Source of the DNA: Alphaproteobacteria bacterium
GTDB lineage: Bacteria > Pseudomonadota > Alphaproteobacteria > UBA828
Length of the DNA stretch: 64,000 nt
Direction: 5' to 3'
Assembly: GCA_965237415.1 (NCBI GenBank)
Contig: CBDEFM010000002.1
Location: 1,760,001-1,824,000 of the forward strand
The translations under genes were made by a program, and so were the position numbers. The notes beneath the pieces are model-generated. The model saw only the letters and a list, made by a program, of their open reading frames with translations, did no database searches and had not been told where the DNA came from. Of this stretch, positions 38,729 to 45,744 are shown piece by piece; position 1 is the first letter of the stretch; each line of letters starts with the position of its first letter.

Positions 38729-39700
38729 ATGGAAGGGGTGACGTGGTTCGTCCTGGTGATCGACGCGACGCTCCGCGTGTCGACGCCGCTCATCCTCGCC
38801 GCCTTCGCCGGCATGTTTGCCGAGCGCTCGGGCGTGGTCGATATCGGCCTCGAAGGCAAGATGCTGGGCGGAGCCTTCGCCGCGGCGGCAGCGGCGTTCG
38901 CCACCGGCTCAGCCTGGATCGGCCTGCTCGCCGGCATCGGGGCCTCGGTCGCGCTCGCGATGGTCCATGCCTTCGCCTGCGTCACTCACCGGGGCGATCA
39001 GGTGGTCTCGGGCATGGCGCTCAACATCCTGGTGGCGGGGCTCGGGCCAGTGCTGTCGCTCGCCTGGTTCGGCCAGGGCGGGCATACGCCGATGGTGGCG
39101 GATGCCGCGCGCTTCCGCCCAATTCACTTCCCCTTCGCCGACCGGTTGAGCGACGTGCCGTTCCTCGCCCAGATCTATTCGGAAATCGCCAGCGGCCACA
39201 ATCTGATCGTCTATATCGCGCTCGGCATGGTCCCGCTCGCGGCGTGGTTCATCTACAAGACCCGCTTCGGGCTGAGGCTCCGCGCAGTCGGCGAGGCGCC
39301 GGAGGCTGTGGACACCGCCGGCATCTCGGTCGCCGGCATGCGCTACCGGGCGATGATCGTCTGCGGCATCCTGTGCGGTATCGCCGGCACGTCGCTCTCG
39401 ATCGCCCAGAACGCGCTCTTCGTGCGCGATATGAGCGCGGGCATGGGCTATCTCGCGCTCGCTGCGCTCATCTTCGGCAAATGGCGCCCGGTGCCGACCC
39501 TCTTCGCCTGCTTCCTCTTCGCCTTCGCCGACGCCGTGCAGGCGAGGCTGCAGGGCGTCGATGTCCCAGGCGTCGGCGTCATCCCGGTGCAGGCGATCCA
39601 GGCGCTCCCCTACCTGCTGACCGTGCTGCTGCTCGCGGGCTTCGTCGGCAAGGCGGTCCCGCCCAAGGCGAGCGGCGTTCCCTACGTGAAGGAGCGTTAG
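38729..39700 (+). CDS. Nucleoside ABC permease 2
   Basis: ERSGVVDIGLEG, KTRFGLRLRAVGE, ends PYVKER; stop TAG coincides with element end. Confidence 0.92.
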   Translation: MEGVTWFVLVIDATLRVSTPLILAAFAGMFAERSGVVDIGLEGKMLGGAFAAAAAAFATGSAWIGLLAGIGASVALAMVHAFACVTHRGDQVVSGMALNILVAGLGPVLSLAWFGQGGHTPMVADAARFRPIHFPFADRLSDVPFLAQIYSEIASGHNLIVYIALGMVPLAAWFIYKTRFGLRLRAVGEAPEAVDTAGISVAGMRYRAMIVCGILCGIAGTSLSIAQNALFVRDMSAGMGYLALAALIFGKWRPVPTLFACFLFAFADAVQARLQGVDVPGVGVIPVQAIQALPYLLTVLLLAGFVGKAVPPKASGVPYVKER

Positions 39701-39908
39701 CCCGGATATCTCGCCGGGCTCACGGACTGCATCGGGCGGGCGAAGCATCAAATTAAGGCGGGATTCGGCGGGATTAAGTGGGATTAAGTGGGATAAGTGG
39801 TATTCCGCGGGGACAACCGCCCGCCGTCCTCCATGACCACGGCGGGGACTGCGGGCGGCCGCATTCCCTGCCTTCGCCTGCCGCCGCCCCGTTCGCTCTT
39901 GCGCTGTA

Positions 39909-39923
39909 TGGCACGGCAATTGC
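39909..39923 (+). promoter_or_regulatory. Consensus sigma54 -24/-12 motif (copy 2)
   Basis: TGGCACGGCAATTGC, identical to 2493-2507. Confidence 0.55.
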
Positions 39924-40022
39924 GCCGGCGGCACGCAGACCGCGGCCGCGGTGAGACATCCGGGCCGCACGATGAGACGGGCGCGCGTCTGCCTGGTCGC
40001 GGCGGAGGAGGAGCCCCCCGCC

Positions 40023-40659
40023 TCACCCTGGCCCGCTCCACTCCGCAGGGCAGAAGGGAGGGTCGGTCGGCCAGAGTCGGCCTTCCACCTCCCGCCGTCT
40101 CAGCTCAGCATCCCGCGCCCCGTGCGCGTCCCACGCGTCCTGTGCACCGTCGCCGGCAGGCGACTCGGACGTGGGGTCCGGCGGGGTGACGTGGGAGTCA
40201 GCGGGAGAGGCGGCGGCCCACCCGAATGCCGCCGGCGGCGGGTCTGTGCCCCCAGGGAAGAGGTGCCCCTCCATGGCCCGGCGGACGGTCTCGACCCGTT
40301 CGGCATGCGTCATAGTGGCCGCGCGCGCGGCCGGCCCGGCGTGCGCGGCGGCGGCATCGGCCTTCGCCTGCTCGCGCTCGACGCGGAGCCTGTCGGCGGC
40401 TTCGATGCGGTAGAGCCCGAGCGCGAGGCGGGCGAGGTCCTCCGTCGATACCGGTTCCGCGCGCTTGCCGAGCTCGGCCATCGTAACCAGAGCCAGCGTT
40501 CGCAGGGTCTCGATCGCGATGAGGGCGCTAAGCCCCTCGGCGCGGGGGTCGCGCGTGCGCTCCCATTCCTCGGCAAAGCGATCGGTCTCGCGCTGCAGGC
40601 AGATCAGGCCGTCCATGCGCTCGGCCCAGCGGCCCTCGGCGGGTCGCGCACGCGCGCAG
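40023..40659 (-). pseudogene. DUF3486-like gene copy 2, 3' part
   Basis: CARARPAEGRWAERMDGL...PTDPPFCPAEWSGPG matches copy 1; cut by IS21. Confidence 0.85.
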
Positions 40660-40813
40660 TGTCGATGACGGTCCAAAAGTGCGCCTATTCGCTGCATTCA
40701 GCACGTGAGTGCGGTGACGATGTAGCAGCTTGTTTGGCGGGTGGAAGCGTGCCTCGTCGGAGCTGTGGATAGGCGGCTTGTCGCAGCGACCGCCCTCGTC
40801 TATGGACGCCCCC

Positions 40814-41070
40814 GGTAATGCAAGCTTTTCTTTGAACGGCACGGTGCATGCGGTCAGGTGCTGTCGTCTATCCGGCCTGTTGATGCGGCATTTCGATCGC
40901 CGCTGGCCCGTATGGAGATACGCGAACCGGGTCCAAAATCGAGTCTGCGAGCTTGAACGCTCTCAGGACGGTGCTGGTTTTCCCGATCCGGTCTCATTGA
41001 CCGTATGCCCTCCTTACCTGTCCTCCGACCTGCCCACATCCCCGACGGCTTCCCGCGATTGTCCGCCCTG
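40814..41070 (-). ncRNA. Putative bridge/seek RNA of the IS1111-type element (exact ends unknown)
   Basis: Contains matches to both target flanks and to the element end (see findings). Confidence 0.8.
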
Positions 41071-42096
41071 TCAGGCGGTTGCGGGAACCCGATAGATCTC
41101 CTTCTTCGCCGTCACCGCCCAGGCGACGCGCGCCATTTTGTTGGCCAGCGCAACCGCGACGAGCATCTTCGGCTTGCGCGCCAGCATTTCGGCCAGCCAA
41201 GGATCCCTCGTCTCGCCACCACGGCGCTCCGCCGCTTGGATTACAGACATGGCACCCGTGATCAAGAGCCGCCTGAGATCGCGCTGGCCCATCTTCGATA
41301 CCTTGCCAAGCCTTGGCTTGCCGCCAGTCGTATGCTGTCGCGGCACGAGGCCTAGCCAGGCGGCGAAGTCGCGCCCGCGCCTGAAGCTCTCCATCGGTGG
41401 GGCGAAAGCCTGTACTGCCATGGCCGTGATCGGCCCGATGCCCGGGATCGTCATGAGCCGTGCCGCCTCTTCGTCCTGGCGTGCGCAAACGCGGAGCTCC
41501 TTCTCCAAATCGTAGATCTTCGCATCGAGGTCTGAGACCTGACCGAGCAGTAGGTCACCCAGCTCGCGAACCGGCTCCGGTAGCCCCGAGCTCGGATCCA
41601 TGAGTGCCGCCTCCAGCCGCTTGACATGAGCTGGCCCCTGTGGAGCGATGACGCCGAACTCCGCCAGGTGACCCCGTAGCGCGTTAATCGTCTGCGTGCG
41701 CTGGCGCACCAGGAGGTCGCGTGTGCGGAACAGCATCCCTCGAGCCTGCTGCTCTTCCGTCTTCACGGCCACCAAGCTCATGGTGGGGCGCTGCGCGGCC
41801 TCGCAAGTCGCCTCCGCGTCCCTCGCGTCATTTTTCTGCCGTTTGACGAATGGCTTGACATATATCGGTGGGATTAGCTTGACCTCGTGTCCGAGCATCT
41901 CGGTCTCTCTACCCCAATAGTGAGCGCTCGCGCAGGCCTCCATCGCCACCACGCAGGGCGGTTGCGAGGCGAGGAAGTCGAGTAGCTTGCCCCGGCTCAG
42001 CTTCTTGCGGAACACAACGGACCCGTCTGCCCGCGCACCATGCAACTGAAAGCTGTGCTTCGCCAGATCGATCCCGATGATGCTAGCCTGATCCAT
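41071..42096 (-). CDS. IS110-family recombinase/transposase
   Basis: IGIDLAK, AMEA, KNDARDAE (DEDD), IPGIGPITA, WLGLVPRQHTTGGK; RBS GGAGG before ATG 42096. Confidence 0.96.
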   Translation of the reverse strand: MDQASIIGIDLAKHSFQLHGARADGSVVFRKKLSRGKLLDFLASQPPCVVAMEACASAHYWGRETEMLGHEVKLIPPIYVKPFVKRQKNDARDAEATCEAAQRPTMSLVAVKTEEQQARGMLFRTRDLLVRQRTQTINALRGHLAEFGVIAPQGPAHVKRLEAALMDPSSGLPEPVRELGDLLLGQVSDLDAKIYDLEKELRVCARQDEEAARLMTIPGIGPITAMAVQAFAPPMESFRRGRDFAAWLGLVPRQHTTGGKPRLGKVSKMGQRDLRRLLITGAMSVIQAAERRGGETRDPWLAEMLARKPKMLVAVALANKMARVAWAVTAKKEIYRVPATA

Positions 42097-42441
42097 GGAG
42101 GCCTCCTCCCTCAGGTGGTTCGACACCACCACCTTGGCACGATTCGCTGCCGTCGGGAGGGGGCGTCCACTCCCTCGAGTCTGGCAAGGCAAGCCGGCTA
42201 TCCACAGCGGGCAGGCGTCGCGATTCCGGTGGCGGCGGGCGAACTGGCGGCAGCCCCTCGGACCTGAACAGCAAGATCGGTAGGGCTACACTCGGGCCGC
42301 TGAGAACGATGCGGCGCCGGCCACGTCTGCTTGGTGGCAAGAGCCGGCGCCGCACCCCCCGAGCCATGCTCGGCACGGCCCAGATGCACAGTATCGTGCG
42401 GGTTTTGGCGGGGGTCGAGCCCGTTCTCATCGACCGCCGCG

Positions 42442-42888
42442 ATGAGGAACTTCGGCCGCCTGTTCAACTGCGCCCACTGCGATCGGCAGGTGGTTCTCTG
42501 CCCGCGCTGCGACCACGGCAACATGTACTGCTCAGCGGACTGCCGCGAGACGGCGCGCAGGCAGGCGCAGCGTCTTTGCGGGCAGCGCTATCAGGACAGC
42601 CTCCAGGGTCGTCGCAAGCACGCGCAGCGGCAGCAGCGCTATCGCGATCGGCACCGGCGTCGGGTGCCGGAGAATGAGGTCTGCGCGCAGAAAGTGACGC
42701 ATCACCCTTTGACCCGCGGGCACCGTCGTCCTGTTGTGCCACAGACGCCGATGACGCGTCGCGGGACACAACCCTTTGGGCACGGGCGGCCTGCCAGGGT
42801 CTTCCGCTGCCATCGCTGCGGCCGGTTCTGCGCGCAGTTTGTCCATCCGGGCCTGCGCCCGGTCCGGCATCCGGCACGAGAAGGGTGA
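42442..42888 (+). CDS. Cys-rich putative zinc-binding protein inside the IS21
   Basis: CAHC, CPRC, CSADC, CHRC motifs; basic; stop 1 nt before istA ATG. Confidence 0.7.
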   Translation: MRNFGRLFNCAHCDRQVVLCPRCDHGNMYCSADCRETARRQAQRLCGQRYQDSLQGRRKHAQRQQRYRDRHRRRVPENEVCAQKVTHHPLTRGHRRPVVPQTPMTRRGTQPFGHGRPARVFRCHRCGRFCAQFVHPGLRPVRHPAREG

Positions 42889-42889
42889 G

Positions 42890-44395
42890 ATGACCATCGA
42901 CAAGAAGACGCGCGCGGAGATCCTGCGCCTCCATTACGCCGAGAAGTGGAAGATCGGCACGATCGCAAACCAACTCGGCGTCCATCACATCACGGTCCGC
43001 CGCGTTCTGGCCGACGACGGGGTGCCTCGGCATATGAGGCGGCACCGGCGCTCGAAGCTCGATCCCTTCATGCCCTTCATCCGCCAGACACTGGCTCACT
43101 ATCCGAAGCTGACCGCCAGCCGGCTCTACGAGATGGCGTGCGAGCGCGGCTACCAGGGGAGCCAGAGCCACTTCCGCAACATGATCGCCCCCGAGCGGCC
43201 GAAGCCTGTGGCCGAGGCCTATCTGCGTCTCAAGACCCTTCCCGGCGAGCAGGCCCAGGTCGATTGGGGACACTTCGGCAAAGTGAAGCTCGGTCGCGCG
43301 GAGCGCCCGCTGATGGGCTTCGTGATGGTTCTGAGCTTCTCGCGACGCATCTTCCTGCGCTTCTACCTCAACGCCGCGATGAGCAACTTCCTGCGTGGCC
43401 ATATCGACGCCTTCGAGGCGTGGCAGGGCGTGCCCCGCGAGCTCTGGTACGACAACCTGAAGAGCGTCGTGCTGGAGCGCCGCGGCGACGCCATCCGCTT
43501 CAATCCCCAGTTCCTCGACTTCGCCGGCCACTACCGTTTCCTGGCACAGCCCGTCGCGATCGCGCGCGGCAATGAGAAGGGGCGCGTGGAACGGGCGATA
43601 CGCTACGCTCGCGACAGCTTCTTCGCCGCTCGCTCATGGCGCGATATCGACGACCTCAACGCCCAGGCCCAGGCCTGGTGCGATGGCATCGCCGCCGAGC
43701 GGCCCTGGCCCGAAGACCACTCCATCAGCGTGCGCGAGGCCTTCGAGCGGGAACGCAGCTCTCTCATTGCGCTGCCCGGCGATCGCTTCCCCGCCGACGA
43801 ACGGGTCGAGGCCTCCATCGGCAAGACCCCTTACGTCAGATTCGACCTCAACGACTACAGCGTGCCGCACACCCATGTGAGCCGCACTCTCGTCGTCCTC
43901 GCGACCCTCGACGAGGTGCGCATCCTCGACGGCGCGGACGTCATCGCCACCCATCCACGCAGCTTCGACAAGGCAGAGCGTGTCGAAAACCCCGACCACA
44001 TCGCCGGCCTGGTCAGGCACAAGCGTCATGCCCGGCGCCTTCGCGGGCAGGATCGGCTGGTCCAGGCCGCGCCCAACAGCGAGCGCCTGCTCACCGACGC
44101 CGCCAAGCGCGGCAGCAATCTCGGCACCATCGTCGCCGCCCTACTGCGCCTCCTCGACGGGTACGGCGCCGCCGAGCTCGAGGCGGGCATCGACGAGGCC
44201 CTGAAGCGCGGCGTCCCCCATCCGAACGCCGTGCGCCTGAGCCTGGCCCGGCGGCGCGAACTGCGAGACGAGCCCCCGCCCATCCCCGTCGACCTGCCCA
44301 AGCATCCACGCCTGCGCGATATCGCGGTGCGCGACCACGATCTCGGCGGATACGACGGACTGGCCGGTGGGCCCGAAGAGGACAGCGAAGAATGA
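42890..44395 (+). CDS. istA: IS21 transposase
   Basis: N-terminal [34 protein letters not shown]. Confidence 0.95.
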
Positions 44396-45201
44396 CCGAC
44401 ACCCTCAAGGACCGTGCCCGCGCGCTGCGCCTGTACGGCCTCATCGCCCACTGGGACGACATCGGCGAGTGCAGCTGGCTGCCCACCCTCATCGCCTGGG
44501 AAGAGGAAGAACGGCGAAGCCGCAGCCTCAAGCGGCGCCTCAGCGAGGCCCGCATTGGACACTTCAAGCCCCTCGTCGACTTCGATTGGGACTGGCCCCG
44601 CCGCTGCGACCCAATGGTCATCGAGGACCTCATGAGCCTCGAGTTCCTGCGCGAGGCCGCCAACGTCGTCCTCGTCGGCCCAAACGGGGTGGGCAAGTCC
44701 ACCATCGCCGCCAACCTCGCCCACCGCGCCATCATCGAGGGGCACACCGTGCGCTTCACAACTGCAGGAAACATGCTCGGTGAGCTCGCCGCCCTCGATA
44801 GCGACAGCCTGCTCCAGCGCAAGCTCCGATTCTACGCCCGCCAACAGCTGCTGGTGATCGACGAGGTCGGCTACCTCTCCTATAGCAATCGCCATGCCGA
44901 TCTGCTGTTCAATATCGTCTCCAGCCGCAGCCAGCAGCGCTCCACCATAATCACCACAAACCGGCCCTTCGCCGAGTGGAGCGAAGCCTTCCCCAACGCC
45001 GCCTGCGTCGTCGCCCTCGTCGACCGCCTCATCCACAACGCCGAGATCATCGCCATCGACGGCGATTCCTATCGCCGAAAGGAGGCCGAGGAACGCCAGA
45101 AGAAGCGCAGCGCAGAGCGCCGCCGCCGCCGGGGCGCAGCAGGCCGTCGGCGAGCCGGAAAGGCCGACGCCCTGGACCGCGAGCCGCCGTCGGCGGCGTA
45201 G
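44392..45201 (+). CDS. istB: IS21 helper AAA+ ATPase
   Basis: GPNGVGKS, LLVIDEVGY, IITTN, VDRLIH, GDSYR. Confidence 0.95.
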   Translation: MTDTLKDRARALRLYGLIAHWDDIGECSWLPTLIAWEEEERRSRSLKRRLSEARIGHFKPLVDFDWDWPRRCDPMVIEDLMSLEFLREAANVVLVGPNGVGKSTIAANLAHRAIIEGHTVRFTTAGNMLGELAALDSDSLLQRKLRFYARQQLLVIDEVGYLSYSNRHADLLFNIVSSRSQQRSTIITTNRPFAEWSEAFPNAACVVALVDRLIHNAEIIAIDGDSYRRKEAEERQKKRSAERRRRRGAAGRRRAGKADALDREPPSAA

Positions 45202-45418
45202 TCATAGATCGTCTCTCGCCATGGTACGGGCGGGTGCAGGCCGAGACCCTGAGAGCCTATCCCCTCGAAGGCGTCGCGCGATCCCTCGGCTACCGCCGCG
45301 ACCCCGATGTCGATGACGCACCCTGGAGGCACCTCGGATTGATCGTCAGCATCAACCGCCGACCACGTCCAACTCCAGAAATGCAGCAAATACGCGCATT
45401 CCTAAGCCGTCGCTAACA

Positions 45419-45616
45419 CGCGCAGCGTCGTGCGCGCGGGATCAAAGGCGAACGGTCGCCGCCCCGCGCACGGACGCGCGCCACGATCTCGTCCATGGTG
45501 GAGCCGTCCTCGATGGCTGCGGTCACGGCGTCCTGGATTGCGGCCGGCAGCGGCTCGTCCGATGAGCAGTCCCCGCCCATCGCACCTGCCGTGCCCGGCG
45601 TGCTCTCGCACTGCAT
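45419..45616 (-). pseudogene. DUF3486-like gene copy 2, 5' part
   Basis: DEPLPAAIQDAVTAAIEDGSTMDEIVARVRA...LIPRARRC joins in frame to the 3' part across the TSD. Confidence 0.85.
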
Positions 45617-45744
45617 GACGCGATCCTGGCGCGCGCGCCGAGCACCGTGCACCGCACCATGGTCCGTCGCCCGCGCCCGCAGGGTCGCGGGCGCGGTATC
45701 AGGGTCCCGTGCGACGCCGACCATGACCGCGAGAAAATTCCGGG

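Follow-up and report, generated by a model that had tools for sequence, protein, structure and literature searches.

A predicted bridge RNA in an IS1111-group element nested within an IS21-family element, with guides that can be read against the element's own target and ends

The mechanism of RNA-guided recombination by IS110-family elements has already been described, under the names of bridge RNA (PMC11208160; PMC11208158) and seekRNA (PMC11187229). Within this family, the IS1111 elements encode transposases of 330-350 amino acids (aa) with a GL-P----S/T-G motif (PMC11187229) and carry subterminal inverted repeats of 7-17 bp, and RNAs have been predicted in the right end of 93.0% of them (PMC11208160). 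In their seekRNAs the complement of the top strand lies 5' of the complement of the bottom strand, the reverse of the IS110 type (PMC11187229). Here, we report on a 64,000-nucleotide stretch of DNA from an alphaproteobacterium (UBA828; assembly GCA_965237415.1, contig CBDEFM010000002.1, positions 1,760,001 to 1,824,000), hereafter the window, in which an IS1111-group element is nested within an IS21-family element. Positions are those of the window unless they carry the prefix C2, and the features are collected in Table 1. We consider it very likely that the nested element encodes a DEDD recombinase guided by an RNA of ~170 nt with two modules. As such, it is a new member with a new target of a principle that was already established in 2024.

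The closest described systems are the IS1111 elements ISEc11, ISPa11, ISKpn4 and ISPst6, for which seekRNAs were reported by Siddiquee et al. (2024, PMC11187229). Compared by description, they share with the element in the window a long non-coding region downstream of the gene, subterminal inverted repeats, a transposase of the same length range with the same motif, and two short target matches of which the top-strand complement is the 5' one. What sets the element in the window apart from these four is its target, a palindrome spacer within an IS21 element, and that it is known from sequence alone. The bridge RNA of IS621 (Durrant et al. 2024, PMC11208160; Hiraizumi et al. 2024, PMC11208158) follows the same logic, with one target loop and one donor loop, left guides that pair with the bottom strand, right guides that pair with the top strand, and a 2-nt core common to donor and target. 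However, the IS621 RNA is located in the left end, upstream of the gene, whereas the one described here is located in the right end; the order of the guides is reversed relative to IS621, by the seekRNA account (PMC11187229); the core is CT in IS621 and CG here; and an equivalent of the IS621 handshake bases, looked for by eye, was not found. ISPpu9 of Pseudomonas putida (PMC12288879) likewise belongs to the IS110 family, carries a gene for a small RNA downstream of its transposase gene and is located in palindromic repeats. Its genome contains RNA-only copies, whereas the sole RNA-only locus in the genome studied here, C2:1562143-1562311, belongs to a truncated and decayed element. Like the element in the window, IS5075 and IS4321, IS1111-family elements whose names are taken from plasmid annotation, are aimed at another mobile element. 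Reportedly they target the terminal repeats of the Tn21 family, as the title of Partridge and Hall 2003 has it. The host here is instead an IS21 element, and the site is internal and not in a terminal repeat. A limited literature search found no IS1111 member aimed at IS21 among the papers listed, which is no proof of absence.

The transposase combines a DEDD (RuvC-like) N-terminal domain (PF01548, residues 7-146, 3.3e-15) with the C-terminal domain PF02371 (residues 212-289, 4.2e-23), as is characteristic of the IS110 family, and matches the NCBIfam model NF033542, 'IS110 family RNA-guided transposase', at 320.9 bits (cut-off 140). Its 341-aa translation contains GLVPRQHTTG, which is the GL-P----S/T-G motif, so both length and motif are those of IS1111. 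A repeat search returned two 11-nt subterminal repeats that are 100% complementary, again as in IS1111 elements. The longer of the two non-coding stretches is the downstream one, with 272 nt between the stop codon and the right end as opposed to 79 nt between the left end and the ATG. The transposase shares 43% identity, across 98% of the query, with proteins that are annotated as transposases of the IS5075 and IS4321 family. Based on the domains, the NF033542 match, the motif, the subterminal repeats, the non-coding layout and the similarity to IS5075 and IS4321, the element belongs to the IS1111 group of the IS110 family, as had been proposed in a first-pass annotation made from the letters of this DNA. 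Its boundaries were set by comparison with relatives B and C from the same genome and with 62 further relatives, described below.

Within the 272-nt non-coding region, four short segments on the minus strand can be read against the element's flanks and ends, and the first-pass annotation had placed all of the motifs correctly. The left flank, CAGACTCGA (42183-42175), recurs as the identical 9-mer inside the element at 40947-40939. Facing the right flank, GAGGGCGGT (40797-40789), is ACCGTCC at 40972-40966, and the two segments are separated by the hairpin GAGC-GTTCAA-GCTC at 40962-40949. The remaining two segments, ATAGACGA (40871-40864) and CTCCAT (40917-40912), relate to the ends of the element. 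Pairing of ACCGUCC to the right flank, as originally read, holds, although the guide is 8 nt and not 7 nt long, and CUCCAU, originally read as a partial match to the left end, indeed has one mismatch to the AGGGAG found there. On the RNA strand, the complement of the top strand (40972-40965) is located 5' of the complement of the bottom strand (40947-40939). In 20,000 mononucleotide shuffles of the 272-nt region, the left-flank 9-mer was found in 27, the right-end 8-mer in 107 and the two together in none, and 448 contained a segment of 8 nt complementary to the right flank with no more than one G-U.

Table 1. Positions of the IS1111-group element, its predicted RNA and guide segments, and the IS21-family host
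Feature	Position	Strand	Details
IS1111-group element	40797..42175	-	1,379 bp; left end from 42175; right-end body to 40799; one copy of the CG core (40798-40797) counted in
Transposase/recombinase gene	41071..42096	-	341 aa
Left subterminal inverted repeat	42159..42169	.	11 nt, 6 nt inward of left end
Right subterminal inverted repeat	40803..40813	.	11 nt, 4 nt inward of right end
Left target and core	42176..42183	-	CAGACT (42183-42178) + CG (42177-42176)
Core and right target	40789..40798	-	CG (40798-40797) + AGGGCGGT (40796-40789)
Predicted bridge/seek RNA scaffold	40843..41011	-	~169 nt; 3' non-coding region, between stop codon and right end
Target-binding module	40924..40989	-	outer stem 40989-40982/40931-40924, inner CCAG/UUGG stem, loop with both target guides flanking a hairpin
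Right target guide	40965..40972	-	ACCGUCCU; 8 nt; pairs with AGGGCGGT (40796-40789), one G-U
Hairpin between target guides	40949..40962	-	GAGC-GUUCAA-GCUC; helix 4 of the pair counts
Left target guide	40939..40947	-	CAGACUCGA; identical to left target (6 nt) + CG core + A
Right donor guide	40912..40917	-	CUCCAU; complements family left end ATGGAG; one mismatch to own AGGGAG
Hairpin between donor guides	40874..40908	-	GGCC/GGCC stem, inner GCGGC/GCCGC stem
Left donor guide	40864..40871	-	AUAGACGA; identical to right end (ATAGA) + CG core + A
IS21-family host element	40660..45418	+	4,759 bp including nested element; terminal repeats start TGT
istA	42776-44395		NF033546, 253.3 bits; rve and Mu-transpos_C_2 domains
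IstB domain	inside open reading frame 43636-45201		PF01695, 2e-55
Host palindrome	arms 40743..40780 and 42190-42227	.	38 nt, 74% complementary (repeat search)

Two diverged relatives, B and C, are present in the same genome, with DNA identities to the element of 78% and 76%, respectively. When the three are aligned, the scaffold is kept and four short segments differ in step with the flanks and ends of each element. We extended this comparison to 80 loci encoding transposase relatives (60-84% aa identity; labelled with L-numbers), which were anchored on the gene by tblastn, followed by alignment of their ends; this procedure replaced a loose motif search for the element ends, which returned many false pairs. 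Seventy-seven loci were aligned and both ends were located in 64 intact relatives. The other 13 (L010, L019, L021, L025, L033, L034, L037, L038, L046, L058, L081, L087 and L089), several of which are interrupted or rearranged, were left out because one end was not locatable. The resulting guide table consists of 61 distinct guide-and-flank combinations with 51 distinct guide pairs. For the left target guide, core excluded, the mean longest common stretch is 4.43 nt with the element's own flank and 2.54 nt with the flanks of other elements, and stretches of at least 5 nt are seen in 33 of 61 own comparisons and in 84 of 3,616 others. For the right target guide the corresponding means are 4.84 and 2.99 nt, with stretches of at least 5 nt in 33 of 61 and 183 of 3,628. 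Loop segments that vary among the elements fit the flanks of their own element far better than those of others. This extends to changes of a single base: L005 has GUAAGCG with GTAAGCG and L020 has GUAACCG with GTAACCG, and L053 has GGGCG with GGGCG and L054 has GGTCG with GGTCG. Such natural paired changes are the nearest substitute for a guide-swap transposition assay. The left donor guide also changes together with the right end, ACACACGA occurring with CACACACG and ACAGATGA with CACAGATG. The original proposal that the guides can be read against the element's own target and ends therefore generalizes to relatives, as well as to element D described below.

Both junctions of the copy in the window read CGAGGG and therefore the exact boundary is unreadable from this copy alone. 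In 56 of the 62 distinct insertions among the relatives, the two bases that precede the conserved left end are the same as the two that follow the right-end body, the core being CG in 39, TG in 22 and AG in one. A register shifted by one base, which a GA core needs, fits 14 of 62. Given that 56 relatives fit the first register and 14 the second, the predicted crossover dinucleotide of the element is CG, at 42177-42176 and 40798-40797. The GA/CGA core of the first-pass annotation is hence to be replaced; the target that it had reconstructed, CAGACTC-GA-GGGCGGT, has the right flanking letters and was split in the wrong place, reading CAGACT-CG-AGGGCGGT instead. The comparison also shows that the left end here is unusual. 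It starts AGGG (AGGGAG), whereas 61 of 62 distinct related insertions have ATGG, such that the second base (42175-42174) is G and not T. A G is also found in the target at the equivalent position after the core. The CGAU and CUCCAU of the RNA fit the AT of the family, not the AG of this copy. The element had been called apparently intact, which is accurate for its open reading frame (ORF) and RNA helices, but not for the second base of its left end.

In order to fold the RNA, 55 distinct RNAs were aligned and analyzed with RNAalifold. The predicted helices comprise a closing helix, stems of 8 bp and 3 bp around the target loop, a hairpin between the target guides and a two-part hairpin between the donor guides, and all four guide segments fall in unpaired stretches of this fold. 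Overall, 95.2% of 1,588 cells are paired and 15 of 29 pairs are changed on both sides. None of 500 shuffles matched the observed pairing, a control that is inflated by the relatedness of the sequences, and registers slid by 1-3 columns gave 20.9-44.2% paired, in agreement with it. Pairing amounts to 97.0% and 97.6% of cells in helices 2 and 3 of the target module, where 7 of 11 pairs are changed on both sides, and to 98.2% and 98.5% in helices 5 and 6, the hairpin between the donor guides. The range of compensation is well illustrated by pair 57/72 of helix 4, which is AU in 23 RNAs, GC in 12, UA in 8, CG in 4 and GU in 3. The predicted secondary structure is conserved and backed by compensatory changes. 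The long-range closing helix (columns 11-15/176-180) is paired in 85.1% of cells, with three pairs changed on both sides. A local 5' hairpin considered in its place (columns 12-15/22-25) is less supported, at 66.2% and no pairs changed on both sides, and its score is lowered by an inserted column in one subgroup. For a stem closing the donor loop, no single register fits all sequences by eye and RNAalifold predicted none.

A covariance model, R1, was built from the alignment of the relatives' RNAs, and scores 166.8 bits at the element in the window (C2:1800843-1801011), so that the covariance-model fold named in the first-pass annotation as a check on its reading is now at hand. R1 finds eight loci in the genome, namely four copies of the element, B, C, a truncated remnant, and a further element, D (C2:3641260-3642660, minus strand), whose transposase is 43% identical. 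Element D took no part in building the model and was found only by R1. Its loop segments match its own left flank, right flank (7/7) and right end, its core is AG, and its target lies inside an 8-bp palindrome. Beyond this genome, R1 matches the region downstream of the IS5075 transposase gene at 18.8 bits (E 2.8e-4) and an IS110-family element of a Klebsiella plasmid at 53 bits (E 1.8e-12). The remnant (C2:1562026-1562359, plus strand) is 5'-truncated and consists of the last transposase codons, the RNA region and the right end. Its RNA scores 110 bits compared with 166.8 bits and has several broken helices, and the locus is a decayed element and no separate RNA gene.

The flanks of the element belong to an IS21-family element, bearing out the original view that the target lies inside another insertion sequence. 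This host has istA and istB, terminal inverted repeats and a short target duplication, CGCGCAG (7 bp), at 40653-40659 and 45419-45425, and is thus of the IS21 family. The insertion is located 138 bp inward of its left end and falls within a palindrome, in the 30-nt spacer that separates core arms of 19 nt (40762-40780 and 42194-42212). The palindrome is kept in the IS21 relatives L090, L091, L093, L099, L100 and L103, with changes on both arms, which suggests that it may serve this IS21 lineage as a hairpin or as a dimer-binding site. Among 80 IS21-related loci, L091, from another genome, contains the uninterrupted target, in which 15 + 15 nt are contiguous around a single CG and 30 of 30 bases agree; in two others, the right side agrees at 12 of 15. 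Insertion was site-specific and without duplication beyond the shared core, as the uninterrupted L091 site consists of the left and right flanks joined through one CG.

We propose that the RNA encoded in the interval from the stop codon to the right end would guide the DEDD recombinase through its two modules. By analogy with IS621 and the tested IS1111 members, an excised circle joining the right end, CG and the left end would undergo recombination at the CG dinucleotide of the target. This target lies, 138 bp from the left end of one IS21 lineage, in the spacer of the conserved palindrome. Direct observation here covers the anatomy, the matches of guides to flanks and to ends, the co-variation, the conserved fold and the uninterrupted target. 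We infer production of the RNA and its binding by the recombinase, formation of the circle, and the order of strand exchange.

Several observations count against this proposal and need to be set beside it. Six of the 62 relatives lack the same dinucleotide at both junctions, and in 9 of the 61 combinations (4 left, 5 right) guide and own flank have only 2 nt in common. The guides of the element in the window are absent from all 80 related loci fetched. With G as second base of the left end, CUCCAU mismatches its own end at one position, and neither right-hand guide pairs with the core in this RNA, unlike IS621 as reported. A scan of 39500-43500 against Rfam 15 (E up to 1) gave no matches to curated models, which says nothing about the RNA being different, and a consensus scan of 40700-42300 returned neither a sigma-70-like promoter nor an intrinsic terminator. 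Public sequencing runs (21 rows from 11 studies, with 3 RNA libraries) were also consulted, of which X1, X3, X5 and the RNA run X10 were compared with 40600-42400. These comparisons were made with Logan contigs only, which cannot show transcription, and most of the pieces are 90-95% alike, indicating that they come from relatives. Over this interval, the four runs contain no contig that joins both flanks and no circle junction. Three contig joints were listed, all inside the element and with short sides (21-26 nt), and one RNA-library contig represents a relative with the guide segments of element B (loose ends 40937, 40972), from which no sign of transcription is drawn. Finally, the copies of the element in this genome are not independent tests of targeting because all of them are situated in one identical composite.

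The exact element is present in three full copies at 100% identity and one 5'-truncated copy. All four have identical flanks, which extend over 138 bp or more to the right and, in the three full copies, over 1.4 kb or more to the left. The composite of IS21 and IS1111 element is complete twice, at 40660-45418 of the window and at C2:98626-103384, with no differences in 4,759 positions and with different target duplications, CGCGCAG (7 bp) and CCCGCG (6 bp). Further left ends at C2:3418195 and C2:2247123 and a lone right end at C2:75246 have other flanks. Each of the four host left ends in the genome is filled, and an empty host copy was not seen. Most simply, the genome copies are explained by IS21 moving the composite. 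Hence, where the first-pass annotation had proposed looking at the sites of other genome copies, the same site within IS21 copies was found as anticipated, but as one identical composite and not as independent insertions.

These copies raise the question of whether the element is a mere passenger, which entered the IS21 lineage by one past insertion and has since been copied by IstA/IstB moving the 4,759-bp composite; its changed left end may have ended its own excision, leaving the guides as a record of a single event. We think this possible, if rather unlikely. The identity of the complete composites at sites with different duplications, the two additional left ends with other flanks, and the occupation of every host left end all fit such a history, as does a left end that departs from the ATGG of the family and from the RNA segments that would pair with it. 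However, three copies have the same intact ORF, and the RNA helices are preserved as well, whereas those of the remnant are partly broken. Efficient site-specific insertion into every IS21 copy would produce the same pattern, and a single mismatch between guide and donor may be tolerated. A second alternative is that the matches to flanks and ends are features of the DNA, such as protein-binding or recombination sites, and not RNA guides. In its favor, the case for an RNA is built from sequence and fold. Nevertheless, the matching segments fall in unpaired loops of a fold backed by compensatory changes, each pair consists of one same-sense and one complementary segment as in the tested systems (PMC11187229; PMC11208160), and related IS1111 members need such an RNA (PMC11187229), making a DNA-level origin very improbable. 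That the matches, each only 6-9 nt, are chance similarities in a G+C-rich non-coding region is next to impossible, in view of the shuffle counts given above and of the same columns matching flanks in dozens of relatives, where the comparison of own with other flanks and the shuffles refute it. We consequently retain the reading of an RNA-guided IS1111 element.

The element offers a clean natural example in which all four guides are readable, the core is assignable from the family and an uninterrupted target is at hand. In addition, some 50 relatives share one scaffold but differ in their natural guide pairs. They constitute a set of RNAs already reprogrammed by nature, which could help to define guide lengths and core rules for IS1111-type systems, these being less studied than IS621.

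A related matter is whether the IS1111 clade to which the element belongs specializes in parasitizing IS21-family elements, an idea that we put forward tentatively and with more doubt than confidence. It is favored by a sister lineage (L012-L018), in which six of the seven loci are in what appear to be repeated terminal motifs of a second IS21 lineage and the seventh is in a sibling IS1111 element, and by the identical 4,759-bp composite at sites with different target duplications and the four filled host left ends. The element appears to ride its IS21 host. Should the idea be correct, programming of a bridge RNA would serve a stable association of one element with another, and the G in the left end could mark this copy as having lost the need for mobility of its own. 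IS1111 elements are known to land in other mobile elements, and the nesting in IS21 widens this habit, as does a sister lineage aimed at apparent IS21 terminal repeats.

The transposases of the sister lineage are 78-80% identical at the aa level to that of the element in the window, and the guides are different. L012-L016 and L018 (around 2921 and 4303) have the core TG and are located in a repeated motif that adjoins an IstA homologue ~30% identical to that of the window; the IstA match is seen in five of these six loci, with none in L016. Two copies of the motif are present per IS21 end, and insertions are found at either copy and either end. The motif looks like IS21 terminal repeats. The host of L017 (around 2917 and 4290) is a sibling IS1111 element, whose bridge-RNA gene it interrupts in the 5' strand of the closing helix. 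The guides of L017 match the conserved scaffold sequence found there, and its own scaffold is one base short at the same place.

Just inside the right subterminal repeat, at 40815-40828, is GCTTGCAT, which is almost invariant in the relatives. Seventeen bases past it, most relatives would have a -10-like hexamer spanning the joined right end, core and left end; the hexamer of the copy in the window lacks the final T. This arrangement would fit a promoter assembled only at the circle junction.

Within the host, an ORF of 185 aa (42331-42888, plus strand) is located between the IS21 left end and istA. Its product is rich in Cys pairs and has no Pfam or NCBIfam match, and the DNA of the ORF is conserved at 77-81% among IS21 relatives. 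The IS21 host has in turn inserted into a member of another repeat family (window ~39750-40660 and 45419-45700), of which the genome contains at least five copies at 85-90% identity, and an ORF at 40023-40697 (minus strand) shows a weak match to Phage_Mu_Gp27, below the Pfam cut-off.

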